64,000 nucleotides of DNA, from assembly GCA_963772455.1 (NCBI GenBank), contig CAVYXJ010000009.1, positions 149,714-213,713 of the forward strand, read 5' to 3'. This document shows, one piece after another, positions 6,997-28,105 of this stretch; the stretch's first letter is position 1, and each line of letters opens with the position of its first letter. Source of the stretch: Candidatus Bathyarchaeota archaeon (GTDB lineage Archaea > Thermoproteota > Bathyarchaeia > Bathyarchaeales > Bathycorpusculaceae). The position numbers and the translations under genes are program-made. The notes under the pieces are model-generated. The model was not told the origin of the DNA and ran no database searches. It saw only the letters and a program-made list of their open reading frames with translations.

Positions 6997-7215
6997 TAAT
7001 TAGAGGATTGTTGAAATGTTGCTTTTGAAGGTTCCTAATTGTTTTGATAAAAAAACAAGAAATAAAGCTTATGAAGAATAACATCAATTGAAACAAATAA
7101 ACCTAATAATAATTAATAATTAACAAATATTTTCTACTTTTTTTTGTTTATTAATCAGATATCCTATTATTTTAACAATAGCCAAGTTTTTAACCTCAAA
7201 TGCTTTCCCTTTATT

Positions 7216-7740
7216 ATGGAAGAAATTGAAGTCAAAGTTCTAGAAGTTAATCGGTTAAAAGTTGAGAAGATTCTCGCCAATTTGGGCGCTAAAAAAGTCT
7301 TCGATGGTAAAATTGAAACGTTGTTCTTTGACTTCAAAAAAGGTACAATTATTAAGAAAAAAAACGTTCTTCGTCTAAGAAAAAAGCAAAATAAAATAGA
7401 ATTAACATATAAAAAAGTTCATTTTACCTCAAAGGCCAAAACTGCAGTAGAATACTCTGTGAGCGTTTCAAGTCTTGAGACAATGGAGAAAATTCTTATG
7501 AATTTAGGTTTATCTGTAATTGAAAGTATGCAAAAGCAAAGGGTCAGTTACAAACTTGATAATGTGCACTTTGACTTTGATCGTTACTCTGGGAACTATG
7601 GGTTTATTCCTGAGTTTTTGGAAATAGAAGCTGAAAACACTGATTTAGTGTACAAATATGCGGCCTTGTTAGGGTTTAAAGAGAAAGATTGCTTGCCATG
7701 GTCAACAACAGAGTTAATTGAGCATTATTCTTCAAAATAA
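7216..7740 (+). CDS. CYTH / triphosphate tunnel metalloenzyme (class IV adenylate cyclase-like)
   Basis: N-terminal EIEVK (ExExK) plus LRLR, LTYK, K.R and FLEIE motifs; ATG at 7216. Confidence 0.88.
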   Translation: MEEIEVKVLEVNRLKVEKILANLGAKKVFDGKIETLFFDFKKGTIIKKKNVLRLRKKQNKIELTYKKVHFTSKAKTAVEYSVSVSSLETMEKILMNLGLSVIESMQKQRVSYKLDNVHFDFDRYSGNYGFIPEFLEIEAENTDLVYKYAALLGFKEKDCLPWSTTELIEHYSSK

Positions 7741-7765
7741 CCGTTTTGGGATAGATGTTGGTCAT

Positions 7766-8215
7766 TTATTTGTGGGTGGGACCAAGTTTGACGACTTTTT
7801 GCGCCGCTTTCGGCTTTGTTTGAGGAATTGCAGAAACCTTCTTTGAAATGTTCCAAGCTGGACATACGCCATATTCTTTCTTAAATTTCTCCATGAGTTC
7901 TTTTTGTGTTATCTTTGGGTTTTCACTAACCATCCAACTTATAGACACTTTTTCAAGGTATCCTTCATTTATGAGCATTGAATTGATTTTTCGGGTTGTC
8001 TTACCACCATATCCTGCCAGATATCCACCGAACACTCTTTTTATTGGTTTTTTGGATTTGCCAATGTACAAAATGTCAGATTCTCCTTTTCCAGTTAGTG
8101 TGCAGTCAGCGAGAACAAAAACACTGCTTTTATCAAAAGGCAGAGAAGAAAATGTGAGTTTTTTTAATGGTACGAATTCGGCAAAGCCGTTCTCTTTAAG
8201 AGTTAAAGAATTCAT
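7766..8215 (-). CDS. GIY-YIG-like fold protein
   Basis: ILYIGKS..R and C-terminal PAWN motifs; the GIY element is degenerate. Confidence 0.5.
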   Translation of the reverse strand: MNSLTLKENGFAEFVPLKKLTFSSLPFDKSSVFVLADCTLTGKGESDILYIGKSKKPIKRVFGGYLAGYGGKTTRKINSMLINEGYLEKVSISWMVSENPKITQKELMEKFKKEYGVCPAWNISKKVSAIPQTKPKAAQKVVKLGPTHK

Positions 8216-8545
8216 GTGGGCTTATTTATATTGCGAGAGATTTAACTTTTCCTACATAGACTATTGTGAACTATATACACTATTTTCAGAGCCCTTAAAA
8301 GCTACTTCAGCAAATTGAAAGCAATAGGTGTAATTTGGAATGGATAAGAGACTTCCTCTTTTCGAGTACGAAACGTTTGCGGTTCGTAGACCAAAATGTG
8401 CGGTAAACAATTATTCCATAAAGAAACGCGAACGTTAAAGGCAAAGATTTTTTTAGATTGTTTTTATGATAATATTGCAAGCGTTATTGTGCTTATTCTT
8501 AAGGGGAAGAGGGCATTAACGATGGGATATTCCGGGTAGAAGACT

Positions 8546-10687
8546 TTGTTAGCTCCAAACAATCGCGATTCTGACACAAACAACGCCTTAACCCAAAAAA
8601 AACTTTTAGACAATCCGAGTTATTTTCTTAACAGGGAACTTAGCTGGATAAGATTTAACGGGCGCGTTCTTGAGGAAGCACGTGACATTTGGCATCCTCT
8701 CCTCGAGAGAGTTAAATTCATCGCCATATGTGGCAGCAACCTCGACGAGTTTTTCATGACGCGTGTTGCTCGACTTATAAAAAAAGTCAATGCAGGCTCT
8801 CAAGAAAAATCCATGAATGGAATGAGCTTCATGGAGCAAATTGATGCCACACGCAAAGAAATTCTTCCATTAATTGAAAATCATGCAAAGTGCTGGAAAG
8901 ATGAACTCGTACCTGCCTTAGCTAAAGAACAAATCTACGTTAGAAATTTTAAAGATTTATCAGAAAAAAACAAGACCGACTTGAGAGAGTTCTTCACAGC
9001 GGCAATTGCTCCATCGATTAAAGTCCCCAAATTGGGTTTTGATAGTGGATCAATTGAGAATCTGCATGTAACACTTTACGTATCAGGCTTCCAAAATCAA
9101 CCGGATTTATGCATCTTGCTTGATGTTCCGTCCGAAAAATTTGGTAGACTTATCAGTATCCCAAAAGAAGAGCAAGCAGAAATAGGTAAAGATGCAGAAA
9201 CTGGAGAAGTCTACTTTATTTTGTTGGAAGATTTAATCATCAATAATTTGGATATAATTTTTCCTTCGGAAAAAAACCTCACGGCATATTCATTCAGATT
9301 GACACGCAACGGAGAAATAGATATCCTAATGGACGAATCTGCGGATTTCATTAAATCCGTACAAAAAAGTCTCTCAACACGAAAAGCCGGATTTCCCACA
9401 AGACTTGAATTTGACAAGAAAACACCCTACTCCATAAAACAAGCAATAACCAAAAAAGTGGGCTTGCCTGATTACTTAACATACGAGTTTGATGGACCAC
9501 TGGGACTAGTTGACCTATGGCAATTGCTAAAAATAAACCGCTCCGACCTCAAAGACAAAAGCTTTTTCCCATGCATCTCGCCGCTGGTTATTTCTGATAA
9601 AAACATTTTTGAAACCATCTCTAAACAAGACTTCGTCCTCTACCACCCATACGATGGCTTTGATGTAATAATTGACCTATTAAGGGAAGCATCTATAGAG
9701 AGTTATGTTTCAGAAATTTGCATAACAATGTATAGAATGGACCATAAATCACCGATTGTTGATGCATTGATTGAAGCAGTCCGCAATGGCAAAAAAGTCA
9801 CTGCCATAGTTGAATTAAAGGCCAAATTTGACGAAGAAAACAACATCCTTCTAGTTGCAAAACTGCGAAGCGGGGGCGTAAACACTGTTTACAACTTCCC
9901 AAATTTTAAGGTACATGCAAAACTATGTCTAATCACCAGAAGAGAAAATAAAGATGTAACCCGGTATTCGCACATTGGGTCAGGTAACTATAATGCGGTT
10001 ACAGCGAAAATTTACGGCGACATCGGTTACCTTACCGCAAACCCCGAAATAGGGTTAGAACTTGAAGACCTATTCCACGCAATAATTAACGGGGTTCAAG
10101 AAAAAGAAACCAAACATCTGCTTGTGGCTCCGAAAACTTTGAAGCGAGAAATTCTCAGGCGAATAGATAGGGAAATAAGTGTTCACCAGAAAACGGGCAG
10201 GGGCTACTTAGCCTTTAAGCTCAACAACCTTGAGGAAAAAGAAATTATTCAAGCACTATACAAGGCGTCGATAGCGGGAATCAAGATTGATCTTAACGTC
10301 AGAGGTTTATGTTGTTTAAAACCGGGAATTCCTGGTGTAAGTGACAATATTTCAGTTATTTCTATAGTAGGACGCTTCTTGGAACATGCTCGAATCTATT
10401 ATTTCCGCGATGATGCTGAAAATGAAGTGCTGATAGGAAGCTCTGATTTAATGTTTAGAAACCTCAACGAACGAATCGAAGTTCTCCTTTCGGTGCCAGA
10501 CCCATATCTGCGGCAAGCAATCCTTGAAAACATGCTTAAAATTTCCCTTCAAGACAATGTTAAGGCAAGAAGATTGCTACCCGATGGGACATATGAAAGA
10601 GTTGCAGTTAAACAGGGCAAAGAAGTCATCAATTCTCAAGTTTGGCTAATTAAGAACAGAGGCATTTGGAATGAACGCGACCATTAA
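8546..10687 (+). CDS. ppk1: Polyphosphate kinase 1
   Basis: NRELSW, SNLDEFFMTRVA, YHPY, ELKAKFDEENN, KVHAK (autophosphorylated His) and RFLEHARI. Confidence 0.97.
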   Translation: MLAPNNRDSDTNNALTQKKLLDNPSYFLNRELSWIRFNGRVLEEARDIWHPLLERVKFIAICGSNLDEFFMTRVARLIKKVNAGSQEKSMNGMSFMEQIDATRKEILPLIENHAKCWKDELVPALAKEQIYVRNFKDLSEKNKTDLREFFTAAIAPSIKVPKLGFDSGSIENLHVTLYVSGFQNQPDLCILLDVPSEKFGRLISIPKEEQAEIGKDAETGEVYFILLEDLIINNLDIIFPSEKNLTAYSFRLTRNGEIDILMDESADFIKSVQKSLSTRKAGFPTRLEFDKKTPYSIKQAITKKVGLPDYLTYEFDGPLGLVDLWQLLKINRSDLKDKSFFPCISPLVISDKNIFETISKQDFVLYHPYDGFDVIIDLLREASIESYVSEICITMYRMDHKSPIVDALIEAVRNGKKVTAIVELKAKFDEENNILLVAKLRSGGVNTVYNFPNFKVHAKLCLITRRENKDVTRYSHIGSGNYNAVTAKIYGDIGYLTANPEIGLELEDLFHAIINGVQEKETKHLLVAPKTLKREILRRIDREISVHQKTGRGYLAFKLNNLEEKEIIQALYKASIAGIKIDLNVRGLCCLKPGIPGVSDNISVISIVGRFLEHARIYYFRDDAENEVLIGSSDLMFRNLNERIEVLLSVPDPYLRQAILENMLKISLQDNVKARRLLPDGTYERVAVKQGKEVINSQVWLIKNRGIWNERDH

Positions 10688-13023
10688 GGGTCAAACATGC
10701 CAAAGAGATAGAAGTTACTGCAAATTTGGCGCCAAAGCGCTTCAAAAACTTCTCGCAGTTTTCGAAATCCAAATCGATGGAGTAATTAAAAGTGACGACA
10801 TCGAATATGTTCATAAAACGCGAGTCACATCTCGAAGGCTAAGAGCCGCAATGCCTCTTTTCAAAGTATGCTTGCCCAGAAAAAAGTACAAAGAGTGTTT
10901 ACGCGAGATCAAGAAAGTCACGCGATTGCTTGGCGACGCTAGAGACCTTGATGTGCAAATAGTCTTTGTAGAGCAATACATGAACAAACTGAATTCTGCA
11001 GTCGAGAAAGAAGGCATTGCTTTACTGCTTAATGCTCATAAAGATCGCAGAAAGAGTATTCAACCAGCAATCATTTGTGGATTGGAGGACCTGAAAGCAA
11101 CCGGCGTTTTAAGGGACCTTGACAAGTTTTGTGAAAAAACTATAATAGAGCCATCAAAGGCCTTTGATCCCGAAAAAGTTTTAGAAAAAGCATTCTGGCA
11201 CATATCGTTTAAGTTAGACGATTTCTTGGCATTGGAAAACTGGGTTCACTCGGAAAACGAAGTTCAAAAGCACCATGAAATGAGAATACACGCAAAGAAA
11301 CTCCGTTACACTTTGGAATCATTCGCGTCTTTATACAAAAATAAACTTCTTGAAGAAATAGAAACAATCAAAGCTTTTCAAGATTTATTGGGCGAAGTGC
11401 ATGACTGCGACGTCTGGACAGAATACATACCCAAATTCATACAAAAGACAAACGTCAAAAACAAGTCCAAACAGAAGAAAAAAGCAGGTTCAACGGAAGC
11501 TGAAAATGCACTTTTGAGCTTTCTAAACTACGTGACGGAAAGAAGAAAGGAAAATTACCTGAAATTTGTTCATTTATGGGATGAAAACAAAAAGAAAACC
11601 TTTTTTGTTCAATTCAGGAAGAGTATTAGTTTAGTTGTCACTGATAAAGACAAAATAAAACGTGTTCTTGCTAATCCCGATGTAAAAATCGCTGTTTTGG
11701 CTGATGTTCACGCCAATCTGCACGCATTGAAAAGAGTCATGAAGGATGGCGAAGAACGAGGAGTTGACGTTTATCTAAATGCAGGTGACTCGATAGGTTT
11801 TGGTCCTTGTCCAAATGAAGCCATAGAGCTGTTATGTAAGAAAAATGTGCTGAGTATTCTTGGGAACTATGACCTTGAGGTTATTGAGGGTAAAGTTAAG
11901 ACTAAAGCCGAAAAAAACCTTGCATTGAAATTTGCCAGAGAGGAGTTGGCAAAATCCTGCGAACTTTACCTTTATTCCTTGCCACGTACACTTAGGCTTG
12001 AAGTGGCAGGCAAAAAACTGCTTATGGCACATGGAAGCCCCGAGTCGATCGAAGAGCACATCTATCATGACACGCCTGTTAAGCGGCTCAAAATCCTCGC
12101 CGAAGCGGCGAAATCTGATTTAATTATTGTTGGACATTCGCATGAGCAATTCTGGCATGCAAGCAAATGACGCTATCTTTGTCAATCCTGGAAGTGTTGG
12201 AAGAACTAGCGATGGAAACCCTCAAGCCGCTTATGCTGTTTTAAGTTTTAATCCCTTTAAAGTTGAGTTGATTCGGCTGGATTATAACGTTAAGGGCACT
12301 GTAAATTCGATTAGAAAAAAGGGTTTGCCTGAAAGTTTCGCTCAAATGCTGCTTCGCGGCGTGTCTTTGGATACCATAATAAAAGAGGATCAAACCAAAA
12401 AGAACCAAATGGTTGACGATTGCAAAGCAACAGTGCAGGTTTGCCAGGATATTTCAACTAAATATTGGCCTGATACTAACCATTTCCAACAGGTTAGGAA
12501 ACTTGCGTTGGGTTTCTTCGACGGGTTAATTAAGCTTCACCATTTGGGTATACGTGAAAGATGCTGGCTTGAATGCGCCGCTGTTCTCCATGATGTTGGC
12601 TTATCCAAATCCGGAGGAGACCACCACAAAAAATCAGCCAAACTAATTCTAAACGACACGCAATTGCCCTTTACTTCGCAGGAAAGAAGAATAATATCAA
12701 GCATCGCCAGGTATCACCGCAAGGGGTTGCCCGAACAAACACATTACAACCTCAAATCTTTTGACCGCGCAACTATTCATAAAGTGAAAGTTCTGGCTAG
12801 CCTCCTTCGCATAGCAGATGGCTTGGATTACTCTCATCGATCAGTCGTGGAAGTTTTAATAGTCAAGATGGGTACAAAGAGAATAACTGTTGAATGCATG
12901 TTCAAAACGAAATCTATCCTCGAAGAGCAGGCTTTTAATAAGAAGAAAGATTTGTTTGAAAAGGTCTTCGCTAAGAAAATGGTGCTGATATGGAAGGAAC
13001 CGTCAAAACCGCTGGACACGTAG
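10671..13023 (+). CDS. CHAD + metallophosphoesterase + HD-domain fusion protein (frameshift near 12160)
   Basis: CHAD: HKTRVTSRRLR, RDLDV, HEMRIHAKKLRY. Metallophosphoesterase: DVHAN, GD, GNYD, HGSP, GHSH, then NPGSVG in the next frame. HD: LHDVG, HH, RYH, AD. Confidence 0.85.
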
Positions 13024-14570
13024 TTGGGTTTGTGGACATCGGTACAAATGCAGTGCGCCTTTTAGTGGTAAGGATAAACCCCAATTTCTCATATACTACC
13101 ATTAGTCAAGAAAAAGAAGTTGTCAGGCTTGGCGAAGAAGAATTTAAAGATAACATTCTTAAACCCGAAGCGATGGAACGCGCAATTTTTGTGTGTGGAA
13201 AATTTGCTAGCCTAGCCAAAACTTATGGAGCCTCTGAAATAATAGCAGTGGGAACCTCTGCTATTCGGGAAGCACAAAACCAACGCGAGTTTCTGGAAAA
13301 ACTTCACAACGAAACGGGACTTAACGTTAAAGTTATTTCGGGACAAGAAGAAGCTAGACTAATTTGCGTAGGCGTATCAAGCGGAATAGATATCGGGGAA
13401 GAAAAATCTATTTTTATAGATTTGGGCGGGGGCAGCACCGAAATTGCCGTCGGCAATCAACATGAATGCTTTTCTTTGGATAGCCTCAGGCTAGGGGCAA
13501 TTAGGTTAACTGCTCAGTTCATTGGTGAAGGCTGGACTGGTCGAGTTGAAAACAGCATTTACAAGCATATAAGACAATACGCTTGCAGCAAAATTCATCC
13601 TTTAAAAGCGAAGGTTCAGGAATACGGTGCTAGACGTGCATGGGGATCTTCAGGGACAATGATAAACTTGGCTGAAATCTCAAACAAGCTTTTCAAAAAG
13701 AACGGAAATGAAGGCGGACTCACTTTGTCGAGGAAAAACTTGAAAAAGTTGGCGCCGATTCTCTGCTCTTTGCCCCTTGAAGAAAGAAAAAAGTTGCCCG
13801 CAATTAACCCAGATCGAGCTGATATAATAATTGCTGGTGCAGCCGTCGTTGAAGCCATAATGGAGGAGTTTGGACTTGAGGAAATCTGCGTTAGTCACCG
13901 AGAACTTCGCGATGGACTACTTGCTGAGTATCTCTCGAATTTTGAGGGTTTCCGGGAACTACAAAAGTCACCTATGAGAAACAGGAGTATTCTGCATTTA
14001 GGCAGATCATGCAACTTCGACGAGAAACATTCTGAAACCGTGGCTTCTTTGGCATTGCAGCTCTTCGATAGCGCAAAACAAATTGGTCTACACAACCTTG
14101 GTGACACAGAGAAAGAACTCTTAAAGAATGCTGCAACTTTGCATGACGTTGGCGATTTCCTTTCATTTAATGATCACCAACTGCATTCTCACTACATAAT
14201 AAGCAACGCCGAACTCCTCGGCTTTGATAAAAAGGAAATTCAAATAATGGCTAACATCGCGCGTTTCCATAGAAAAAAGTTGCCATCAAAAAAAACTTTG
14301 AAAACCACAGGATTAGACGAAAAAACAAATCACACTATTGCAGTTCTATCTACGTTTCTTCGATTTGCAGAAAAGCTTGACCGAAGTCATTGTTGCCTTG
14401 TAAAGAAAGCGGAATTTATTAAAGAAAATAAAGATCTAGTAATACTTGAGTTTTACTCAGACTCAGACTGCAGTCTAGAAGAATGGAGCATTTTTCAGAA
14501 TCGGCAAGCGTTCTTTGAAGCCTTCGGAAAGCAACTAGAAGCACATTGTATATTTTCGCCAAGTCCATAG
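12990..14570 (+). CDS. ppx: Exopolyphosphatase Ppx/GppA with C-terminal HD domain
   Basis: DIGTNAVRL, TSAIREA, ISGQEEA, DLGGGSTE, RADII, LRDGL and LHDVG. Confidence 0.95.
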   Translation: MEGTVKTAGHVVGFVDIGTNAVRLLVVRINPNFSYTTISQEKEVVRLGEEEFKDNILKPEAMERAIFVCGKFASLAKTYGASEIIAVGTSAIREAQNQREFLEKLHNETGLNVKVISGQEEARLICVGVSSGIDIGEEKSIFIDLGGGSTEIAVGNQHECFSLDSLRLGAIRLTAQFIGEGWTGRVENSIYKHIRQYACSKIHPLKAKVQEYGARRAWGSSGTMINLAEISNKLFKKNGNEGGLTLSRKNLKKLAPILCSLPLEERKKLPAINPDRADIIIAGAAVVEAIMEEFGLEEICVSHRELRDGLLAEYLSNFEGFRELQKSPMRNRSILHLGRSCNFDEKHSETVASLALQLFDSAKQIGLHNLGDTEKELLKNAATLHDVGDFLSFNDHQLHSHYIISNAELLGFDKKEIQIMANIARFHRKKLPSKKTLKTTGLDEKTNHTIAVLSTFLRFAEKLDRSHCCLVKKAEFIKENKDLVILEFYSDSDCSLEEWSIFQNRQAFFEAFGKQLEAHCIFSPSP

Positions 14571-14586
14571 TTAAAGTTGGAAACGC

Positions 14587-15489
14587 TTATTCTTTTTCTA
14601 ATTCAGCTTTTGCTTTTTCCAAAGCTGTACATTCTTCTTTGCTTAAAACGGGATATTTCAGATCTAGTTTTTTGATTTGTGAAAGAATAATCTCAGAAAC
14701 CGACGCGTGAGCGACCCATTTCTTGTTGGCAGGAATAATGTACCATGGTGCCCAATCCGTGCTTGTTTTAGTAAGTAAATCTTCATAGGCCTTCATGTAA
14801 TCGGACCATTTTTGCCGTTCGGAAAGATCTGTTAGGGAAAATTTCCATTCTTTATCATGGTTGTCAAGGCGTTCAAGCAAGCGTTGTTTCTGTTCTTTTT
14901 TTGAAACGTTTAGGAAGAATTTCAAAATTACGGTGCCGTTTCTAACTAAGTGCCGTTCGAACATGTTTATGTCTTCGTAGCGTTGATTCCAGAAAAGTTT
15001 GTCGTTCTTTTCGATATGGAATTTCTGTTTTTCCAAGATTTCAGGTCGAACCTTAACTATTAGAACATCCTCGTAGTATGACCTGTTGAAAATTCCTATA
15101 CTTCCCCGTTCTGGAAGAGCTTTTGCATGTCGCCAAAGGAAATCGTGATCCAGCTCCTCTTCTGATGGAGTTTTGAAGCTTTTGACTTGGCATCCTTGCG
15201 GATTAACTCCTGACATTACATGCCTAATTGTGCTATCTTTTCCTGCAGCATCCATTCCTTGAAGAATAATCAACATTGAATAAGTATCGCTTGCCCAAAA
15301 TAATTCCTGCCAATCAATCAGTTTTTGCCTGTTTGAGTCCAATAGCTTTAAGGCTTGTTCTTTAGCAGCTTTTTTGCCTTCTTTTTCTTCTTGTTTCTTA
15401 GACCATTTTGGAATCCAATCCGGATCGTAATCTTTCAAATCAATTATTTTACCAATAGGCACCTTGAAATCTTCTGTGTCCATTGACAT
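14587..15489 (-). CDS. ppk2: Polyphosphate kinase 2, class III-like
   Basis: Walker A QGMDAAGKDS; FNRSYYEDV (Glu typical of class III); WKF and APWYIIPA. Confidence 0.93.
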   Translation of the reverse strand: MSMDTEDFKVPIGKIIDLKDYDPDWIPKWSKKQEEKEGKKAAKEQALKLLDSNRQKLIDWQELFWASDTYSMLIILQGMDAAGKDSTIRHVMSGVNPQGCQVKSFKTPSEEELDHDFLWRHAKALPERGSIGIFNRSYYEDVLIVKVRPEILEKQKFHIEKNDKLFWNQRYEDINMFERHLVRNGTVILKFFLNVSKKEQKQRLLERLDNHDKEWKFSLTDLSERQKWSDYMKAYEDLLTKTSTDWAPWYIIPANKKWVAHASVSEIILSQIKKLDLKYPVLSKEECTALEKAKAELEKE

Positions 15490-15619
15490 ACAAAACTAAC
15501 TCAATGAGAGTATACAGCAGGCACTTAATATTAGCTACGGCGAGGGTGTTTTGAATACTCAAGAGCCAAACTGGATAAGCCCACAATGTTTTCTCGTAGA
15601 ATTCAATTAGGCTAAATCG

Positions 15620-16264
15620 TTAGCCTAAAGCTACTTTCTCACCAGTTACAATGTAAATTATTGATTCACATATGTAGGTAGCGTGGTCAGCAATTCGTTC
15701 TAGGTACCTTGTCATTAAGGCGCTGGATAACATGCATTTACTATTTGGGTATTCTGCATTGATTAATTTGTTTAGATATTCGAAGTACATTTTGTCTACA
15801 TACCGTTCAGATTCTGAAATTGTTTTGGCCAAAATAATATCTTGTTTTTTAAGTGAATCTATACTTAATTTGACCATTGTTAGGACATTTTCACTCATTT
15901 CATTTATGTAATCTCTTGTCCAGTCTTCGCATTGTGTTAATCCACATAATTGGTCATTAATTATGGATATGTCAAGGGCGTATCTTCCGAATCTTGCGAA
16001 GTCGTTGCCTATTTTCATGTATGATTTTATAGTTCTCAGATCTATAGCGACAGGTTGGAAACGGGCTATTAAATGGAAACTTTGATCTTCAACTTTTTCA
16101 GACATCGAAAGGAGAATGTCTGATAGCTCCTTTACTTGTGCTTGAACACTTTTTCCTTCGAGGTATCCATGTATTGATAAGGCTAGGGTTTCGTATGTTA
16201 ACTCGCCCATTCTTACTATTAGAACTGATTGATCTTCTAATCCGCGATCGATTATTCTGCTCAT
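15620..16264 (-). CDS. phoU: Phosphate signalling protein PhoU
   Basis: QPVAIDLR and ERIADHATYI motifs; follows pstB. Confidence 0.92.
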   Translation of the reverse strand: MSRIIDRGLEDQSVLIVRMGELTYETLALSIHGYLEGKSVQAQVKELSDILLSMSEKVEDQSFHLIARFQPVAIDLRTIKSYMKIGNDFARFGRYALDISIINDQLCGLTQCEDWTRDYINEMSENVLTMVKLSIDSLKKQDIILAKTISESERYVDKMYFEYLNKLINAEYPNSKCMLSSALMTRYLERIADHATYICESIIYIVTGEKVALG

Positions 16265-16275
16265 GTTTATCTCTC

Positions 16276-17073
16276 CTATCCGAACTCTCCAGTTATGTAT
16301 TTTTCTGTTAATGGGTTCTTTGGGGATTCAAAAATATCTGTGGTTAGTCCAAACTCGATTAGAGATCCAAGATACATGAAGGCTGTGAAATCAGAGACTC
16401 GCGACGCTTGTTGCATATTATGAGTAACTATAGCAACGGTATAGTCACGTTTAAGTTCAACTACTAATCGCTCAATCTTAGCTGTGGCAATCGGATCTAA
16501 GGCAGAACATGGTTCATCCATCAATATGACTTCAGGCTGCAAGGCAATCGCCCGTGCTATACATAATCGCTGTTGTTGTCCTCCTGAAATGCTTGTGCCT
16601 GGCTTATGTAAATCATCCTTTACCTCTTCCCAAAGAGTTGCCCGCTCAAGACTTTGCTTGACCACCTCATCAAGGTTCTTGCCTTTCTTGGTTCCAGTCA
16701 ATCTTAAGCCTGCGGCTACATTGTCGTATATAGACATTGTTGGGAATGGATTTGGTTTTTGGAAAACCATTCCTACTCTTCGCCGTATTTGAACCGGATC
16801 CACTTGTTTATCGTAGATGTTTTGACCGTCAAGCAACACTTGACCAGTCATTTTGGCGTTTGGTGTCAATTCATGCATTCTGTTTAAGCATCGTATGAAA
16901 GTGGATTTACCGCATCCTGAAGGACCAATTATTGCTGTCACAGAGTTGGTTTTGATTCCTATGTTTACGTTTTTTAAGGCTTGTTTTTGTCCAAACCAAG
17001 CGTTCAAATCTATACTCTGCATTTTCATGTCTGAGTCAACGGTTTTTGTTTGATCATTATTTGTGCTCGTCAT
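16276..17073 (-). CDS. pstB: Phosphate ABC transporter ATPase
   Basis: [29 protein letters not shown] and DEPCSALDP. Confidence 0.97.
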
Positions 17074-17900
17074 CTTTTGAGTCTACCTCTACTCGCTAAT
17101 CTAACAATTATGTTTAGGCTTAACACCATCAATATCAAAATTAGTGCTGCTCCCCAACCTTGCGCCTGCAAACTAGCCTGTGGCTGAAGGGAGTCACGCC
17201 AGATTTCAAGGGGGAGGGAAGCCATTGGTTGGTTTAGACCTTGGAAGAAGTATCTGTTACCCAAAATAGTCATGATTAATGGAGCAGTTTCTCCAGCGAT
17301 CCTTGCGACGGCAAGAAGTGTTCCAGTCAATAATCCTGCTTTAGCTGTGGGTAAAACAACGCTTAGAGTTGTTCGCCATTTATGAGCACCAAGTGCCAAT
17401 GAAGCTTCGCGAACGCTATTTGGAACAAGTTTGAGTGATTCTTCAGTTGTTCGTGCAACAATCGGGATTAGGATAAATGACAGCGCTATGGCTCCAGCGA
17501 TGGCCGAATAATGCCCTATGATTGCAATGACTATTACGCCGTAAGCTGTTATTCCAACAACTATAGACGGAAACTCGGTTAAGACATCGTTAATTGAGCT
17601 CAAGGCGGTTGCATACTTATTGTTACCGAATTCGGCAAGATAAACGCCTGAGAGTATACCTACTGGAATGCCTATAATACTTGTTAAACCAATCAAGATG
17701 AGGGTGCCTTGGATAGCGGGTCCGATTCCTCCGGAAGAATTGTCGTTTATTAAGAAACCAATGCTGAGTTGAGGAACACCCCTTATAATAACTTCCCATA
17801 GAATGCTGATCAGCGGGGTCACAGCTAAAACTACGCATATAGCGCAAAGAACAAAGAATAGGCGGTTTTTTAATTTTCGGAAGCTGTAATTGGAGATTAT
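17070..17900 (-). CDS. pstA: Phosphate ABC transporter permease PstA (probable ATA start at 17900)
   Basis: [16 protein letters not shown] and ARIAGETAP; the frame stays open 26 codons upstream of the listed GTG and encodes the first TM helix. Confidence 0.93.
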
Positions 17901-18886
17901 TCGATTGCGCCTCCTTTAACTTTCAACACTCGGTGTACTAAAATGCCTGCGCCAAGGTTGATACCTAAGCTTATTATCAGAAGAATTAAACCGACGCCTA
18001 TGTAAGCAGAAACCTGTAAGGTACCTGTCGCTTCAAGAAAACCATTAGCTATAAGTGAAGCCATGGTTTGGCTTGGTTTAAAAAGCGATGTGGGGATAGC
18101 TGCTGGACCAGTTGCGTTGCCTATAAGCATTGCAACAGCCATTGTTTCTCCTATTGCTCTACCTAAACCGAGGATTACTGCTCCAAAGATTCCTGAGCGT
18201 CCATAACTTATTACCCAATAACGAATTACTTCCCATTTTGTTGCTCCAATGCTGTAGGCGCCTTCGCGGATGCTATTTGGAACTGCGCTTATGACTTCTT
18301 TTGAAATGGATGCTACAGTTGGAATTATCATAACAGCTAAGATTACTCCAGCAGTGAAGATATCCAATCCAAAAGGTGTTCCACTAAAAATCGGAATCCA
18401 GCCAAGGTAAGTAGATAATGGTTTTTCTATGTAATCAAGAATCCAAAAACGAAAAATAAACAAACCCCAAAGACCATAAATCACGCTTGGAACGGCTGCC
18501 AATAACTCAACTAGATAGCCAATAGGAACTCTTAGTGTTCTGGGCGACATCTCTACGAGAAAAATTGCGATACCTAAACTCAAAGGAACCCCGATGAGAA
18601 GCGCGATACCTGAAGTGACAAGTGTACCCATCACATAAGGAAGCGCTCCATAGATTTCTCTGCCTTCCACGGGATTCCAGGCGCTACCAAAGAAAAAGTT
18701 TGCACCAAACTTTTGTATTACTGGTACGGAACCTGTTGTAAGAACATAAGCTGTAACTATTAGAATTATGATTGCTGAAGCTGCCACTATTGCAGCAAGA
18801 TTTTTGAAAAGAAAGTCGCCTGATAATTTTGATCTTATTTTTGTAAAAAACTTGAGGAGGTGGAGCTGTTTCAGAGCGTTATCCAC
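17897..18886 (-). CDS. pstC: Phosphate ABC transporter permease PstC
   Basis: ELLAAVPSVIYGLWG and GRAIGETMAV. Confidence 0.96.
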   Translation of the reverse strand: MDNALKQLHLLKFFTKIRSKLSGDFLFKNLAAIVAASAIIILIVTAYVLTTGSVPVIQKFGANFFFGSAWNPVEGREIYGALPYVMGTLVTSGIALLIGVPLSLGIAIFLVEMSPRTLRVPIGYLVELLAAVPSVIYGLWGLFIFRFWILDYIEKPLSTYLGWIPIFSGTPFGLDIFTAGVILAVMIIPTVASISKEVISAVPNSIREGAYSIGATKWEVIRYWVISYGRSGIFGAVILGLGRAIGETMAVAMLIGNATGPAAIPTSLFKPSQTMASLIANGFLEATGTLQVSAYIGVGLILLIISLGINLGAGILVHRVLKVKGGAIE

Positions 18887-18887
18887 C

Positions 18888-20006
18888 TTAAGTTGTTGGA
18901 AGTTGGTGTCCGTCGAATGTTATAGATTGAATAGTTACTTCGTCGATTTGCACGACGTTTGATGGCAGTTTTGCATAAGAGAGTTGTGGAGCCAAGTTTT
19001 GACCTTCATGTGTAACGTACCAGAGGAATTGAACGAGTGCTGTTGCTTTTTCTTGTGTCATGTCAGACAGTACATTGAGCTCTTTGTAACACAGCAAGTA
19101 AGTGAAACTGACAATGGGGTACGCGTTTGCGTCTGGAGCATTAAGTAAGCTTACGTTGATCCAACTTGCATCACCTGCAGGTAAACCGCTTGAGGCACCA
19201 GATTGAACAGCTAACTGCGTTGAATCTAATGATGGTTGAACATAATTTCCAGCTGGATTTTGAATTGCTGCAACTGTCATTCCATTTTCAAGTATGTAGG
19301 CTAATTCAACATAACCTATTGAATATTGTATACCTTGCACAGATGAAGCAACTCCTGTATTGCCATTTGAACCTGATCCGACTGGCCACGCTACTGATTT
19401 GCCTTGTCCAATTGAACTGTTCCAGGTTGTGCTTGATTCGCTTAGGTATCCTGTGAATATGAAAGTTGTTCCTGAACCGTCTGAACGATGCACTGTATTG
19501 ATCGCTTGTGCTGGAAGGGTAATAGTTGGATTGATAGATTGGATTGCGGGGTCATTCCAAACGGTTATTGTTCCTTGATAGATGTCAGCTATGATTTTGC
19601 CAGTTAAATGAAGACCTGAAACAATACCAGGTAAATTATACGCGACTGTTACTGCACCTATTGTTTCTGGAATATGCAATGCATTCGGAATATTTGCCGA
19701 ATCTGAAGCACTAAGTGGTGCATCAGAAGCTGCAAAATCAACGGTTGGCGTTGGTTGTTTGTAAGCGGATATTCCGCCTCCACTACCAATTGATTGATAA
19801 TTTATTTGTACATTGGGTTTCACATTTGCTGTATAGTTCTTTATCATTGAGTCGAGAAGCGGATAAGGGAATGTTGCTCCAGCGCCCTGTAGGATTATTT
19901 TTGCAGATGGGGCAGTGGGTTGTGAGAGGTATACATAGGCTGCAATTGAACCAATTATTATGACGATTGCAACAATTGCGATTATGATTCCGTATTTAGT
20001 ATTCAT
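18888..20006 (-). CDS. pstS: Phosphate-binding protein PstS
   Basis: GAGATFP, GSGGG, RSDGSGTT and YPI motifs; N-terminal membrane anchor. Confidence 0.96.
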   Translation of the reverse strand: MNTKYGIIIAIVAIVIIIGSIAAYVYLSQPTAPSAKIILQGAGATFPYPLLDSMIKNYTANVKPNVQINYQSIGSGGGISAYKQPTPTVDFAASDAPLSASDSANIPNALHIPETIGAVTVAYNLPGIVSGLHLTGKIIADIYQGTITVWNDPAIQSINPTITLPAQAINTVHRSDGSGTTFIFTGYLSESSTTWNSSIGQGKSVAWPVGSGSNGNTGVASSVQGIQYSIGYVELAYILENGMTVAAIQNPAGNYVQPSLDSTQLAVQSGASSGLPAGDASWINVSLLNAPDANAYPIVSFTYLLCYKELNVLSDMTQEKATALVQFLWYVTHEGQNLAPQLSYAKLPSNVVQIDEVTIQSITFDGHQLPTT

Positions 20007-20105
20007 ATTTCCTTTCCTCGTTTTTATATTACTAAATCATGTAAAGCTTTTATATAGTAGATCGATATAAAAATCATAATCTATATAGATCTAACTAATA
20101 TTGAC

Positions 20106-21185
20106 GTGACCAGAAAGAGTAACCTTATGTCAAGAGTGTCTAAAGAAACAGAAAAAATAAGCGAAGAACAACGTAAACTTCAGGTAACAGGCGGTTCAAC
20201 ATTCATTTTATCCCTGCCCAAAGATTGGGCCACTAGAAACGAACTCAAACGTGGAAGCTCAATGGTAGTTCGTGAGGAAGAAGACGGGTCACTATCAATT
20301 GCACCAGCAAGTTTCCCGAAAAAAGAAAAACAAGATGAAGCCTACATAAAAGCATCATTAAACGATAACCCTGACGCTATTATGAGAACGGCGATTTCAG
20401 CCTATTTGAGCGGTTACAACGTTCTACATATAAGGGCACAAGGGCAAAAAGTGCTCTCGTCTAAGCTTCGAAACCATCTAAAAACCTTCGCAAGACACTA
20501 TCTGGTTGGAACAGAAATTGTTATCGATACCCCAAGTGAATTAACCCTACAGGTTTTACTTAATTATCCTGAATTAACAGTTCAAAACGCTTTAAGCAGA
20601 ATGTCAATAATCGCTTCATCCATGCATAAAGAAGCCATAACAGCCATAAAAAACCTTGATTATTCCAGCGCTAAATCAGTCATAGAAACTGACCGTGAAG
20701 TTAACCGTTTCAGCCTTTATATCGTGAGACTATTGAAGTTGGCCGTTTCAAATCAGCGAATTGTAAAAGATATAGGTTTAACCAGCCAAAAAGAATGCTT
20801 AGGATATAGACTGATAGCGAAGTCTGTTGAGCGAACAGCTGATCATGCAACTAAAATCGCTGAAAACATACTACTCCTTAAAGAGCCTGTAAACGAAGAA
20901 ATTCTAGAAAAGATTAGCCAACTAAGCGATTTAGCTATTTCAATGTTTGAGTGCTCCATGGAAGCTTTGTTTAAACATGATTTCAACTTAGCTGAAGGTG
21001 TAATTGAAAAATTATCCCAAGTCCATAAGGTTGAAAAAGAAACGGTTTTGTACTCAAATAACGCAAAAATTGAAGAAATTGTTAATTTGAGATTGTTAAT
21101 TGAGAGTGTCAGACGAACGGCGGAGTATGCTACAGATATTTCTGAAGTTGTCCTGAATTTGAACGTTGAATCAGTTTTAAGTTAA
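20106..21185 (+). CDS. Archaeal phosphate uptake regulator (AbrB DNA-binding domain plus two PhoU domains)
   Basis: RKLQVTGGSTFILSLPKDW AbrB motif, ERTADHA and RRTAEYA; divergent from pstS. Confidence 0.92.
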   Translation: MTRKSNLMSRVSKETEKISEEQRKLQVTGGSTFILSLPKDWATRNELKRGSSMVVREEEDGSLSIAPASFPKKEKQDEAYIKASLNDNPDAIMRTAISAYLSGYNVLHIRAQGQKVLSSKLRNHLKTFARHYLVGTEIVIDTPSELTLQVLLNYPELTVQNALSRMSIIASSMHKEAITAIKNLDYSSAKSVIETDREVNRFSLYIVRLLKLAVSNQRIVKDIGLTSQKECLGYRLIAKSVERTADHATKIAENILLLKEPVNEEILEKISQLSDLAISMFECSMEALFKHDFNLAEGVIEKLSQVHKVEKETVLYSNNAKIEEIVNLRLLIESVRRTAEYATDISEVVLNLNVESVLS

Positions 21186-21215
21186 GTTTTTTTTTTAAAA
21201 AAAAGTCTTATGACT

Positions 21216-21350
21216 TTAGTTTATGCTTGAATTGTCAATTAGGTGAGCTGTGCCGTCTGGGCAGTAGACTTTGTCGCCTTTTATGGCTTTTTGGTATCGT
21301 TTGCTGCATTCTTTAAGTTTTGAGCAGCCATCACAATCTCTTGATATCAT
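21216..21350 (-). CDS. 44-aa Cys-rich microprotein
   Basis: Strong SD GAGGTGA; translation MISRDCDGCSKLKECSKRYQKAIKGDKVYCPDGTAHLIDNSSIN. Confidence 0.7.
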   Translation of the reverse strand: MISRDCDGCSKLKECSKRYQKAIKGDKVYCPDGTAHLIDNSSIN

Positions 21351-21509
21351 TCTTCTTTTTCACCTCTACATTTGTTCAATTTACCATATAACCAAAGTCA
21401 CCTATAGAGATAACTTCCATAATCTATATATAAAAAATAGATTTTTGTTAAAAAAATCCAAAAAATCATGGGAACATTTAAGAAACAAACAAAACACTCA
21501 CAAACAGCA

Positions 21510-22166
21510 ATGAACCAAAAAAGATGGCAAACAAAAGGCATTTTCTTAGACTTAGACGGCACCATCGTAGATTCTACAGGAGCTTATCTTGAAGCAGCCC
21601 AAATTGCATTCCAAACTATTGGAAAAAAGACCCCGGAGAACCAAATACTTCTCGAAATCCCAAAAAGAATAGAACAGCACTTCACAATCGACGACTTAAC
21701 TCAAGGACACAAAAAAGAGTTCATGCAAATCTACTTAAAATCATACTATTCCGCCACAGAAACAAAAACCAAACTCTTCCCAAACATCTCAGCAACACTT
21801 GAGGCACTTTCAACAAAAGCTAAACTAGCACTAATAACTATGCGCCATTGCCCAAACCAAGTTATCCAAAAAGAACTGGATTATTTTGGGATAGCAAAAT
21901 ACTTCACCCACATCGTAACCGCAATGGACACCACTAAACCTAAACCTTCGCCTGAAGCTTTAATCCAATGCGTAGAAGCCATGGACCTGGAAATGTGCGA
22001 TTGCATCATAGCGGGAGATTCAGTCAATGATGTACGGGCGGGAAAAGCTGCTGGCGCAAAAACCGTAGCGGTGCTCTCAGGGCTATTTAATCGTGACGAA
22101 CTGGCAAAAGAATGCCCAGATCTAATTTTACCTAACATTAGTTCCCTTCCAGAATTCATCGAGTAA
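21510..22166 (+). CDS. HAD-superfamily phosphatase
   Basis: DLDGT, KPSP and GDSVND motifs. Confidence 0.9.
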   Translation: MNQKRWQTKGIFLDLDGTIVDSTGAYLEAAQIAFQTIGKKTPENQILLEIPKRIEQHFTIDDLTQGHKKEFMQIYLKSYYSATETKTKLFPNISATLEALSTKAKLALITMRHCPNQVIQKELDYFGIAKYFTHIVTAMDTTKPKPSPEALIQCVEAMDLEMCDCIIAGDSVNDVRAGKAAGAKTVAVLSGLFNRDELAKECPDLILPNISSLPEFIE

Positions 22167-22267
22167 ACTTTCTTTTGTTATATCAGAAACCGACATATTG
22201 CTATAATCCGCCTAAGGCAGTTATATGGCGCTGGAAAAATAAGGTTTAATTAAAACCTCTATCTTAA

Positions 22268-22915
22268 GTGAATGTGGAGAGGGCTTCAGCGGAGATTAGT
22301 ATGAACTTTGTAGAGATTATGCTAGGGGAGAAATTGAAAGATGCGGATCCAGCTCTAGATATAATGGGGTCGGATCGCAAAGTATTGCAGGTTGCCTGCC
22401 AAGACTTCACCAATTACCTCAAGTTCCATTGGAACCTGATAGGAAAGGAATCAAACCAATGTGAATTAGTGGAGAAACTGGAGAAGCTATTCAAAGAAGA
22501 TGCTGCTGAACTAAATGCGTTTTTGAATGTTTGGACTGGTATTTGGTTCAAGAAATGGAAAGAACGTGTAAAGCTCCTTATCGGCAACCAGAACGCTAAC
22601 AAATGGAACAAAATGTCCAAAACACTCGCCAACGTTGAACCTTTATGGCGCAAAATAGAGCACAAACAAGAACTCCAAGAAGTTGTAGTTGCTACCCTTA
22701 TAAAGAATGGAGAGATTTGCGGAACTGAAATCTTGGCTGAGAACTTGTTGAAGATGGAGCTTGGAGAAAAAAATCTTGAGAACGCCAGCGACAGAGATAG
22801 ACTCTTTACAACGTTAAACTGCGCTCTACGAAAGGCTCGAGAAATGGCACAAAGCCGGGGTCCACTAATCTTTGTTAAAATAGACAAAGGCTACTATAAC
22901 GCACTAAACGAGTAA
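22268..22915 (+). CDS. Hypothetical protein
   Basis: 215-aa ORF with normal composition and an upstream TATA-like TTTAATTA. Confidence 0.7.
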   Translation: MNVERASAEISMNFVEIMLGEKLKDADPALDIMGSDRKVLQVACQDFTNYLKFHWNLIGKESNQCELVEKLEKLFKEDAAELNAFLNVWTGIWFKKWKERVKLLIGNQNANKWNKMSKTLANVEPLWRKIEHKQELQEVVVATLIKNGEICGTEILAENLLKMELGEKNLENASDRDRLFTTLNCALRKAREMAQSRGPLIFVKIDKGYYNALNE

Positions 22916-25517: not shown

Positions 25518-27011
<1,494 letters not shown>

Positions 27012-27080
27012 TGTGACACTCCGTATTAATTTCTGCGGATCTTACTATCTTGTTTTTTGTGTGGTACGTTCTGCACTTTT

Positions 27081-27148
27081 CGCATATCTATGCCTAACTG
27101 GATTTGGAGGGAGAAACATTCTCCACAAATTATACGTCAAAGCCCAAT
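27081..27148 (-). other. 5' strand of the pre-16S processing stem (BHB: helix 27106-27109, bulge 27103-27105)
   Basis: Transcript UCUCC-CUCC-AAA-UCCAG pairs with UUGGA-GGAG-CAA-GGAGA, a canonical 3-4-3 bulge-helix-bulge. Confidence 0.85.
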
Positions 27149-27332
27149 TCAGACCTAACTGAGCAATTAGTCAGGTCCACATTTTACTATTTTTTTTGTC
27201 CCCGCAATTGGAGGCCAACTCCGTCATTCCTGCAAGGCGAAATCGCCGTTTCGGTAGGGGTTGAGCCGCCGCCATGTGAAAATTGCGGGGCTAGCAATTA
27301 TAGCTGAATTCTAACAGAAGCCTAGTCAACTG

Positions 27333-27350
27333 ATATAAACATTTCTTTTC
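27333..27350 (-). promoter_or_regulatory. BRE-TATA promoter of the 16S transcript
   Basis: GAAAAGAAATG-TTTATAT on the minus strand, about 25-30 nt upstream of the paired leader start near 27305. Confidence 0.7.
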
Positions 27351-27837
27351 CATCTACACCAAGCATTGTGAATCCGATTAAATGTATCTGTCTTAGATTT
27401 ATGAGGCATTGGAAAAAGAATTTGAGGTTTTTTTACTGTTTTTTAAGGTTTTCTAATGGTTTCATATTGCAGGATTACAAGTTTTAAGACAGCGAAATTT
27501 TTAGTCTATGTTGCAGAGGGACTCGAAGATATTTTGATTAAAGTGGTTATTTTAAACTCCATGATAGCCCCCCGCCGCACATATTTGTTTAAAAATTTTT
27601 GTGCCAAGTAAAGTGACAAGGTATATTTCCTTTTTAACGCGAATCTAAATTTCATTAGTGGACACTTCAACAATCTCTCCTTCACCTGACAACTTTATTT
27701 TATGAATAATAACGAGTCAATTATGCTGAAATTTTCTATTTAGAGTAGTGTTTGTGGCTTCATTATGTGACAACATTATTTTATATCATTTAGAAGCGTA
27801 GCGTGTTGTTAAGCAAGGAAATTACTAAGAGCCAACA

Positions 27838-27930
27838 TGTTAAGCGGGTCTGGCGGCTAAGACAAGAAAGGCGTTCCCCCACTGTTTTTGCGCCTTATCA
27901 AGGTTAGCCCGTGGCTAAATCCGCTTAACA
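27838..27930 (+). ncRNA. Candidate hairpin sRNA 1 with a UUCCCCC loop
   Basis: Nested inverted repeats TGTTAAGCGG/CCGCTTAACA, GGCTAA/TTAGCC and AAGGCG/CGCCTT; G-U wobbles favour the + strand; a T-run follows. Confidence 0.5.
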
Positions 27931-27970
27931 AACATTTTTGCCCTTCAAATTTTAATTATTGTAGTAAACT

Positions 27971-27994
27971 TGTAACTGTAGGAGTACAATCACA
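27971..27994. promoter_or_regulatory. Palindromic operator candidate TGTAACTG-N8-CAATCACA
   Basis: Same architecture at 45863-45886 and 54944-54967. Confidence 0.55.
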
Positions 27995-28033
27995 TCATTA
28001 TTTATTTCCCAAACGCTTAAAATAAATCAGGAA

Positions 28034-28105
28034 GGTTAGCTTAAATGCAGGCGAAGTGATTCCCCCTCTCTCTTCCGAATTTTCTCGCATGCGTTTAAGT
28101 TAACC
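28034..28105 (+). ncRNA. Candidate hairpin sRNA 2 with a C/U-rich loop
   Basis: 16-bp stem GGTTAGCTTAAATGCA/TGCGTTTAAGTTAACC with two G-U pairs on the + strand; the apical region contains TTCCCCCTCTCTCTTCC. Confidence 0.5.

Follow-up and report, generated by a model that had tools for sequence, protein, structure and literature searches.

In a 64,000-nucleotide stretch of contig CAVYXJ010000009.1 (assembly GCA_963772455.1, Candidatus Bathyarchaeota archaeon; the whole stretch is hereafter called the window), the genes between positions 7216 and 22166 likely constitute a genuine chromosomal region of a soil Bathyarchaeon in which two modules are joined, an acquired module for polyphosphate (polyP) metabolism (module A) and the sole pst phosphate importer of the cell (module B). 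Module A would consist of ppk1, a gene encoding three domains (the tri-domain gene) and ppx as one operon, with a CYTH gene and a GIY-YIG-like gene upstream and a convergent ppk2 gene downstream; module B would comprise the cell's only pstSCAB-phoU importer and a divergently oriented AbrB-PhoU regulator. The gene set is real and was probably acquired horizontally, and the region illustrates well what classical polyP metabolism would look like in a lineage without prior description of it. Genes were called from the list of open reading frames (ORFs) together with Pfam and NCBIfam scans using the models' own cut-offs, which gave the following features.

7216-7740, plus strand: stand-alone CYTH / triphosphate-tunnel metalloenzyme gene (PF01928, E 1e-13)
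7766-8215, minus strand: GIY-YIG-like gene of 149 amino acids between CYTH and ppk1 (from tblastn, AlphaFold2 [AF2] and Foldseek)
8546-10687, plus strand: ppk1, polyphosphate kinase 1, 713 amino acids, TTG start (Pfam, TIGR03705, structure 1xdo)
10671-12170, plus strand: first piece of the tri-domain gene (ORF1), CHAD plus metallophosphoesterase motifs I-V (PF05235, PF12850/PF00149)
12127-13023, plus strand: second piece of the tri-domain gene (ORF2), end of the esterase fold plus a Ppx domain III/HD-like tail (PF21447, PF01966)
12156, plus strand: +1 frameshift site, the extra C in ttctggCatg (three-frame reading)
12990-14570, plus strand: ppx, long Ppx/GppA-type exopolyphosphatase, 526 amino acids (PF02541, E 5e-62; PF21447)
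14587-15489, minus strand: ppk2, single-domain class III-like polyP:AMP/ADP phosphotransferase, 300 amino acids, convergent with ppx
15620-16264, minus strand: phoU (PF01895, two repeats)
16276-17073, minus strand: pstB (TIGR00972, 393 bits, cut-off 343)
17070-17822, minus strand: pstA (TIGR00974, 261 bits, cut-off 193)
17897-18886, minus strand: pstC (TIGR02138, 290 bits, cut-off 196)
18888-20006, minus strand: pstS (TIGR00975, 336 bits, cut-off 205)
20106-21185, plus strand: AbrB/SpoVT (MazE-like)-PhoU fusion, putative phosphate-responsive regulator (PF04014 plus two PF01895 repeats)
21468-22166, plus strand: HAD-IA phosphatase resembling phosphoglycolate phosphatase and PpaX (PF13419, E 4e-30)

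All genes named in the original prediction, which had described a complete cluster for phosphate uptake and polyP with intact catalytic motifs, are thus present in this interval, but its "CHAD fusion" is not intact as a gene, and the word "complete" is weakened because this middle (tri-domain) gene is frameshifted. Likewise, the catalytic motifs are intact in PPK1, PPK2, PPX and CYTH, but the esterase fold of the CHAD fusion is cut after motif V. Apart from the tri-domain gene every gene in the region reads through, and all parts of both modules are single-copy in the genome. Overlaps of 17 nt (ppk1/ORF1), 44 nt (ORF1/ORF2) and 34 nt (ORF2/ppx) connect ppk1, the two middle ORFs and ppx, which reads as the layout of one translationally coupled operon.

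The enzymes predicted to make, degrade and spend polyP are the best supported members of module A. PPK1 matches all four of its domains (PF13089, PF02503, PF17941 and PF13090), scores 699 bits against TIGR03705 (cut-off 466) and aligns with structure 1xdo at E 1.6e-110. Its H457 and H614, both invariant in alignment A1, align with H435 and H592 of Escherichia coli PPK1, the pair whose H435A/H592A double mutant is described as catalytically impaired in the cited text (PMC6537752). In PPX, the PF02541 match spans positions 2-283 of 285 and domain III (PF21447) is present; the ASKHA motifs DIGTN (DxGTN) and DLGGGS align with those of Deinococcus radiodurans PPX (8jgo), and the matches in the PDB are 8jgo (E 5e-56) and 1u6z (E 1e-43). 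Membership in the Ppx/GppA family is safe; the assignment to PPX rather than GppA is not. PPK2 consists of one PF03976 domain (E 1e-64) that scores 362 bits against TIGR03709 (cut-off 247) and 374 bits against NF042973, under that model's cut-off of 450. Its best PDB matches are 6an9 and 6au0 ("PPK3 Class III", E 1e-88), followed by 5lc9 and 5o6k, versus E 1e-22 to 1e-33 only for class I chains, and the Walker A and Walker B stretches are kept relative to a class III template.

To place these genes in their neighbourhood, the proteins of the window were compared by tblastn with 40 stretches of at most 20 kb around ppk1 and with two further loci, L033 and L034. The fetched stretches extend only ~9-10 kb past ppx and some stop at contig ends; g1 denotes the genus of the window, g6 its sister genus, and f22, f24 and f33 other families of the class. 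The order CYTH/GIY-YIG-like/ppk1/tri-domain/ppx, usually with the convergent ppk2, is conserved in g1 and g6, and the CYTH gene is kept upstream of ppk1 in most related loci. The longest CYTH ORF starts at TTG 7144 and homology begins at ATG 7216, from which the ExExK motif is found as EIEVK at residues 3-7; the PF01928 score is 51.8 bits (cut-off 23.2), and of the relatives in the PDB (2dc4, 1yem and SaTTM 7ns8) the archaeal CYTH structures are closest. The 149-amino-acid gene lies beside ppk1 in g1 and g6 loci at 50-79% identity, and tblastn found none in the f22, f24 or f33 loci. This protein matches Pfam GIY-YIG below the cut-off (E 0.007, 17 bits, cut-off 22.6); its AF2 model (pLDDT 84) has as top Foldseek matches the GIY-YIG domains of UvrC (N-terminal domain), Hpy188I and EndoII, which are weak (E 5e-3, probability 1.0, template modelling [TM] score on the target 0.62). 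A YIG-like "LYIGKS" and the invariant N122 are present, and the first GIY tyrosine is not evident. Absent from the gene list of the original prediction, this conserved gene belongs to the neighbourhood. A plus-strand ORF at 7848-8318 that overlaps it is not taken to be a gene, since the frame kept in relatives is the one on the minus strand.

The middle gene of the operon, broken in the window, is the most unusual component. Its first piece carries CHAD (PF05235, E 1e-43, 150 bits; PDB relatives 6qv7 and 3rqz) and its translation terminates with GHSHEQFWHASK and a stop right after esterase motif V (GHSHEQFW); the second piece opens in another frame with FVNPGSVGR..., the remainder of the esterase fold, and goes on into PF21447 (E 3e-17) and PF01966. 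Read together, the "CHAD fusion" and the next ORF, which the original prediction had not listed, are one gene of ~785 amino acids that a +1 frameshift has cut in two. Relatives encode the intact protein in a single ORF of 780-807 amino acids, and one intact orthologue (P0004, from locus L123) shows CHAD, Metallophos and Ppx-GppA_III/HD in Pfam. Both pieces occur in 37 of the 42 screened loci, in one frame in all 37 and with no intervening stop in 28, the remaining five being without the esterase form or without the neighbour altogether.

Is the frameshift real? Contigs from four soil runs were compared, of which those of X1 and X6 do not span position 12156. Only two do (X3 record 11 and X7 record 22, 96-97% alike, each from a soil-metagenome run of a different study), and both are one letter shorter there; the extra base is private to this assembly because both spanning contigs lack the letter. 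It represents either a private mutation or an assembly error. If it were a private mutation, the tri-domain gene could be a real pseudogene in this strain and the polyP module would run without its middle enzyme, in line with the position of the base outside any homopolymer run and with the intact reading frames of all other genes of the region. We doubt this explanation, however: neither the spanning contigs nor the frame of the gene in the 37 related loci agree with it, and locus L033 (10001-13600) carries similar single-base frameshifts in ppk1 (~residue 399) and in the CHAD part (~residue 148), which suggest indel errors in assemblies of such kind and point to sequencing error.

In a search with the intact orthologue, 567 of 8,000 scored proteins matched at E <= 0.001. 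The best 120 of the 567 all carry CHAD, Metallophos and Ppx_III, mostly in 770-800 amino acids (a few in 685-737), under no names other than "YfcE family phosphodiesterase", "CHAD domain-containing protein" or "putative phosphoesterase". In an alignment of 30 tri-domain sequences, which includes members of two other families at 42-48% identity, the esterase residues D345xH347, G372D373, G398N399-Y-D401, H454 and G488H489xH491 are invariant, as are H604, H640-D641 and H682 of the HD-like part and H48, R51, R55, R58, R91, H201, H202, K209 and R212 of CHAD. Motif III reads GNYD and not GNHD/E, a tyrosine replacing the canonical histidine. ORF1 of the window has all five esterase motifs, and the NPGS stretch is also invariant in the 30 sequences. 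An AF2 model of an intact orthologue (pLDDT 88, pTM 0.79) matches 3rqz, 1nnw and the Ap4A hydrolase SapH (3qfm) in its esterase part (target TM 0.79-0.83), the CHAD-polyP complex 6qva in its CHAD part (target TM 0.77) and the C-terminal halves of PPX in its tail (3rf0, target TM 0.75, and 1u6z/2flo). The middle gene is modular across lineages: it is CHAD-PpxIII in class family f22 and in Methanoregula, CHAD-esterase in Methanocalculus, esterase-PpxIII/HD in an Anaerolineae locus and the tail alone in a Methanomicrobiales locus. In the literature on CHAD, metallophosphoesterases and polyphosphate, or on archaeal CHAD, we found no study of a CHAD-metallophosphoesterase-Ppx-tail protein. Organisms from archaea to mammals, unlike bacteria, are stated in excerpts of PMC12210182 to show strong endopolyphosphatase activity, and the esterase fusion is a reasonable candidate gene for this activity.

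The host assignment was weighed against the possibility that the region is foreign, i.e. a bacterial or methanogen contig that was mis-binned or mis-joined. The window lies within a 213,713-base contig of a 2.45-Mb genome (24 contigs, 92% complete), and the cluster, in the middle of this contig, is separated by 3.4 kb from the following archaeal marker.

25518-27011, minus strand: full-length archaeal 16S rRNA gene (RF01959, 1486 bits)

GC content is level across the window, cluster included. The closest named locus among the matches listed, L033, sits on a 2.1-Mb contig labelled Candidatus Bathyarchaeota archaeon and shares the flanking HtrA, MarR, 215-amino-acid, VTT and PUA genes in synteny at 59-94% identity, and NCBI names of homologues of the tri-domain protein end in "[Candidatus Bathyarchaeia archaeon]". 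The 16S gene, this label and these names bear out the original assignment to a probable Bathyarchaeon. The order from HtrA to the gene after HAD is repeated in the independent assemblies L124, L116, L123 and L125, so that a chimeric join, which the original prediction had considered, is very unlikely; several more genomes of the genus, some of them in 1-3 contigs, likewise show the whole order. As to habitat, 17 of the 20 public runs with parts of the stretch are soil metagenomes and the other three are "metagenome" or unlabelled, with at most 31% of the sampled words of the stretch in any one run. No RNA run is among those listed, which speaks neither for nor against expression. In favour of a foreign origin, the nearest relatives of PPK1 outside the class are, among the matches listed, those of Methanomicrobiales and bacteria, and a homologous locus, L034, is labelled as a Chloroflexota bin. 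Given the contig position, the neighbouring 16S gene, the level GC and the repeated synteny, however, we regard a mis-binned or mis-joined contig as very improbable.

L034 deserves a description of its own. This contig (DATHCJ010000055.1, labelled Candidatus Limnocylindrales bacterium) carries a Bathyarchaeial polyP module at 59-78% protein identity and holds the GIY-YIG-like and tri-domain genes in a second copy each. In tblastx versus the genome of the window, strong similarity does not reach beyond the cluster, and the far end of the locus gives a few short matches. A further irregular locus, L151 (G283:C11:1-17600), shows a partial tandem duplication of the module: the complete copy is accompanied by part of a ppk1 and by one further tri-domain and one further GIY-YIG-like gene.

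A chromosomal region that joins a conserved module to an optional one is what the neighbourhood comparison suggests. In f24 and f33 the polyP module is present with a different ppx (30-36% identity, variable orientation), and the middle gene of f22 lacks the esterase. pstSCAB-phoU stands beside the polyP module in 12 of 23 g1 loci, in 2 of 4 g6 loci and in none of 11 loci from other families; in L033, ppk2 is followed directly by HAD with no pst between. We assign ppk2 to the polyP module because it is convergent with ppx even where pst is absent. The cluster is thus, judged by gene order, a composite of a conserved polyP module and an optional, juxtaposed pst-phoU module, and the coupling of storage to phosphate uptake that had been proposed from the window is a feature of some genomes only. 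Nor is the pst link as special as earlier thought: ppk1 beside pstSCAB is also frequent, among the matches listed, in Streptomyces and other Actinomycetota.

These counts also bear on the stronger idea of a functional supercluster, in which selection keeps pst-phoU, the regulator and the polyP genes together and one phosphate signal switches uptake and storage. The arrangement ppk2/phoU-pstBACS/AbrB-PhoU/HAD in the 12 g1 and 2 g6 loci, the co-directional position of ppk2, 130 bp downstream of phoU, and a similar AT-rich motif before both the AbrB-PhoU regulator and HAD speak for it. Yet the link is absent in 11 of 23 g1 loci (a few of these stretches are short), in 11 of 11 loci of other families and in L033, and in the five non-adjacent relatives pstS was found on another contig or ~1 Mb away in four and not found in the fifth. 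A supercluster under common selection is therefore unlikely in our estimate, and we retain the composite of two modules.

We next consider how far the polyP module is spread. In the class sample, PPK1 (PF02503) was matched in 53 of 401 genomes and in 7 of 131 genera: within family f1 in 30 of 40 genomes of g1, 5 of 12 of g6 and none of the other sampled genera, and in other families in 2 of 71 genomes of f22, 4 of 16 of f24 and 11 genomes of f33. In the phylum sample it occurred in 8 of 401 genomes, all of genus g1. The original prediction had called archaeal ppk1 patchy and suggested a hidden Markov model survey with synteny; both samples agree with patchiness. PPK2 is wider than PPK1 (123 of 401 genomes matched, 86 over the cut-off), and one f33 genus has PPK2 and lacks PPK1. 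Two g1 genomes, G172 (L005/L148) and G332 (L006/L149), encode a divergent PPK1 that is 34% identical, groups with Bacillota and adjoins a short Ppx-like gene, G172 having this type only and G332 both types; it represents either an independent acquisition or contamination.

PPK1 relationships were assessed with two trees: tree 1 (87 rows, LG+G4, quick search) leaves out all but three Streptomycetaceae, two duplicates and PPK1s shorter than 550 amino acids or frameshifted (including that of L033), and tree 2 (59 rows, C20 mixture model, quick search) additionally drops the majority of Actinomycetota and Cyanobacteriota together with eight rows that were long or distant. In both trees the main-type PPK1s of the class form one clade (support 98) that is sister to one of the two Methanocalculus copies (support 99-100), and the clade of class plus Methanomicrobiales (96-98) lies among sequences of Nitrospirota, Acidobacteriota and Anaerolineae. 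The PPK1 of L034 nests inside g1 in both trees. The operon order ppk1/CHAD-x-HD/ppx is common to the class and Methanoregula. With the class clade nested in Methanomicrobiales PPK1s and the order shared with Methanoregula, the horizontal acquisition proposed earlier fits, and the pattern would fit an operon acquired from Methanomicrobiales-like archaea and ultimately from bacteria.

On paper, the predicted gene set is sufficient, as had been proposed, to make (PPK1), bind (CHAD) and degrade (PPX) polyP and to spend it on nucleotides (class III PPK2, PPK2-III). In the scheme that we propose, Pst would import inorganic phosphate (Pi), with PhoU and AbrB-PhoU tuning uptake, a role read from their families. 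PPK1 would then polymerise the gamma-phosphate of ATP into polyP, on which the tri-domain protein might dock through CHAD and the Ppx tail while its metallophosphoesterase cuts the chain. PPX would trim polyP ends processively to Pi, PPK2-III would convert AMP to ADP and ATP at the expense of polyP, and CYTH and HAD could clear triphosphate, pyrophosphate or phosphoester leftovers. Activities, order of events and regulation are all inferred from the genes. A bolder extension holds that soil Bathyarchaeia of genus g1 are polyP accumulators that received the whole ppk1/CHAD-x/ppx operon from donors resembling Methanomicrobiales and buffer their energy and phosphate with polyP and PPK2-III, and that the tri-domain protein accounts for the endopolyphosphatase activity reported for archaea and represents a new prokaryotic class of polyP-cutting enzyme; we offer this tentatively and would sooner doubt than assert it as a whole.

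Several observations weigh against reading the region as an acquired, working polyP module joined to an importer. The tri-domain gene is frame-broken in the window. Three assignments fall short of model cut-offs: PPX scores 269 bits against TIGR03706 ("exopolyphosphatase only", cut-off 307), PhoU 126.9 bits against TIGR02135 (just under the cut-off of 130.25), and CYTH 51.5 bits against its best NCBIfam model, TIGR00318 (class IV adenylate cyclase, cut-off 57.95). The PPK1 trees rest on quick searches of the best 80 of at least 599 loci from the genome scan, among which there are no Methanosarcinales or Halobacteria, and the direction read for the transfer hinges on a bacterial root. Finally, L034 reflects either mis-binning or recent transfer.

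The same cut-offs are relevant to another explanation, namely that these genes serve stress or nucleotide signalling and not storage, with Ppx/GppA acting on (p)ppGpp-like and the esterase on Ap4A-type substrates and CYTH as a cyclase. GppA models matched PPX too, the closest solved relatives of the esterase include the Ap4A hydrolases 3qfm and 2qjc, and an adenylate cyclase is the best, if sub-threshold, model for CYTH. On the other hand, the esterase is fused to two modules of polyP-binding type and fixed between ppk1 and ppx in all main-type loci, PPX is closer to the PPX proteins of D. radiodurans and E. coli than to GppA, and PPK1 and PPK2 lend the locus a polyP logic. We thus consider a signalling role quite improbable and favour polyP metabolism as the function of module A.

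Module B would pair a phosphate importer with a regulator. All four pstSCAB subunits are above their equivalog cut-offs and lie in one operon with phoU; no second pst set was found in the genome, and this one is predicted to encode a high-affinity phosphate ABC importer. AbrB-PhoU adjoins pstS in 13 of 14 pst-carrying related loci, and in the fourteenth (L134) the fetched stretch stops inside pstS. The genome encodes paralogues of the fusion at C10:340896-341957, C10:85170-86039 and C13:137376-138365; no phosphate gene adjoins any of the three, and one has a TerC/DUF475 membrane protein as its neighbour. In this organism the fusions resemble a small family of regulators. Judged by titles and abstracts, none of the papers found on archaeal AbrB-PhoU proteins concerns phosphate control. 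The remaining features of the region and its surroundings are as follows.

20007-20105, no strand: 99-bp divergent spacer between pstS and AbrB-PhoU, AT-rich, with TTTATATA boxes
21271-21513, plus strand: ORF of 80 amino acids, no family, partly conserved in relatives
22268-22915, plus strand: gene for a 215-amino-acid protein, no Pfam family, after HAD in relatives (73-93% identity)

Within the spacer, a 12-bp perfect palindrome, ATCTATATAGAT, lies at 20078-20089, and a related stretch, CATAATCTATATA, occurs at 21404-21430 upstream of HAD (repeat family D9); the two could be a shared operator or merely TATA-rich promoter sequence. Save for this promoter-region motif, a repeat scan of 7000-22300 gave short, low-identity families only. 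The ORF of 80 amino acids, without a Pfam match, is 46-83% identical in L123, L124, L125 and L131 (tblastn). For the HAD protein, every NCBIfam equivalog match is below its cut-off. The 215-amino-acid protein has a 50% identical paralogue on contig C19. The rRNA genes are apparently unlinked, because no 23S or 5S match accompanies the 16S gene anywhere in the 64-kb window, and ~1.6 kb adjoining the 16S gene (27012-28660) is without an ORF of at least 100 amino acids.

In soils and sediments, Bathyarchaeia count among the most abundant archaea not yet cultured, and how they manage energy is poorly understood. The presence of ppk1, ppk2, ppx and CHAD throughout a genus extends the known range of classical polyP metabolism into this lineage and suggests a role of soil Bathyarchaeia in the retention of soil phosphorus. 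The tri-domain protein is a defined and conserved candidate for a new polyP-cleaving enzyme, and the natural domain variants (CHAD-tail, CHAD-esterase and esterase-tail) invite comparative biochemistry. Literature searches on polyP in Bathyarchaeia gave, judged mostly from titles and abstracts, community surveys and unrelated work and no paper on the cluster; public records annotate the genes, but within the reach of these searches no discussion in print was found.

Among known systems, the closest in plan is the ppk-ppx polyphosphate operon of E. coli, reportedly described by Akiyama, Crooke and Kornberg in 1993. As there, PPK1 has both catalytic histidines, and a long Ppx/GppA protein is encoded after it in the same orientation (structures 1xdo and 1u6z). 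Here, by contrast, a gene for a 785-amino-acid CHAD-metallophosphoesterase-Ppx-tail protein is wedged between them with overlapping ends, CYTH, GIY-YIG-like and class III ppk2 genes flank the operon, and the host belongs to the archaeal lineage Thermoproteota. For the esterase a precedent by function, not by sequence comparison, is the yeast endopolyphosphatase Ppn2, said to have been placed in the metallophosphatase superfamily by Gerasimaite and Mayer in 2017. Ppn2 is a metal-dependent enzyme of phosphoesterase fold that cuts polyP internally, but it works in the vacuole of a eukaryote and has neither a CHAD domain nor a PPX tail. The actinomycete loci (Streptomyces, Kitasatospora, Microbacteriaceae) resemble the window in having ppk1 a few kb from pstSCAB and differ from it in order and strands and in lacking the CHAD fusion, ppk2 and AbrB-PhoU. 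Closest in sequence outside the class, among the matches listed, are the PPK1s of Methanomicrobiales (Methanoregula L035 and L038; Methanocalculus L042) at 43-44% identity; Methanoregula shares the order ppk1/CHAD-containing gene/ppx, but its middle gene is without the esterase, and that of Methanocalculus is without the tail.

Published surveys provide the background to these comparisons. A 2019 RefSeq survey, in which Methanosarcina mazei is included, places archaeal PPK1 homologues in Euryarchaeota only, according to the excerpted text (PMC6864096). Excerpts of a 2026 paper state that Crenarchaeota are without PPK1 and PPK2, and in its Data S1 the 23 Bathyarchaeota genomes among the rows listed are all scored 0/0/0 (PMC12995831). 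The same excerpts note that PPK neighbourhoods often contain CHAD, PstS and PstC, and describe a ppx/PPK3/CHAD operon in Sulfolobus acidocaldarius, which like the window unites an archaeal ppx, a kinase and a CHAD protein; its kinase, however, is the dTMP-kinase-derived PPK3, whereas the genome of the window has PPK1 and PPK2 (PMC12995831). Finally, the YgiF-type CYTH-CHAD proteins and the stand-alone CHAD "phosins" (6qv7, 6qva) are similar in that CHAD is joined to a phosphohydrolase amid polyP genes, and CHAD is proposed, in the part of that paper cited here, to make fused polyP enzymes processive (PMC6537752). The Bathyarchaeial arrangement differs from the YgiF type in that CYTH is separate and CHAD is fused to a YfcE/ApaH-like metallophosphoesterase and the C-terminal half of a PPX.

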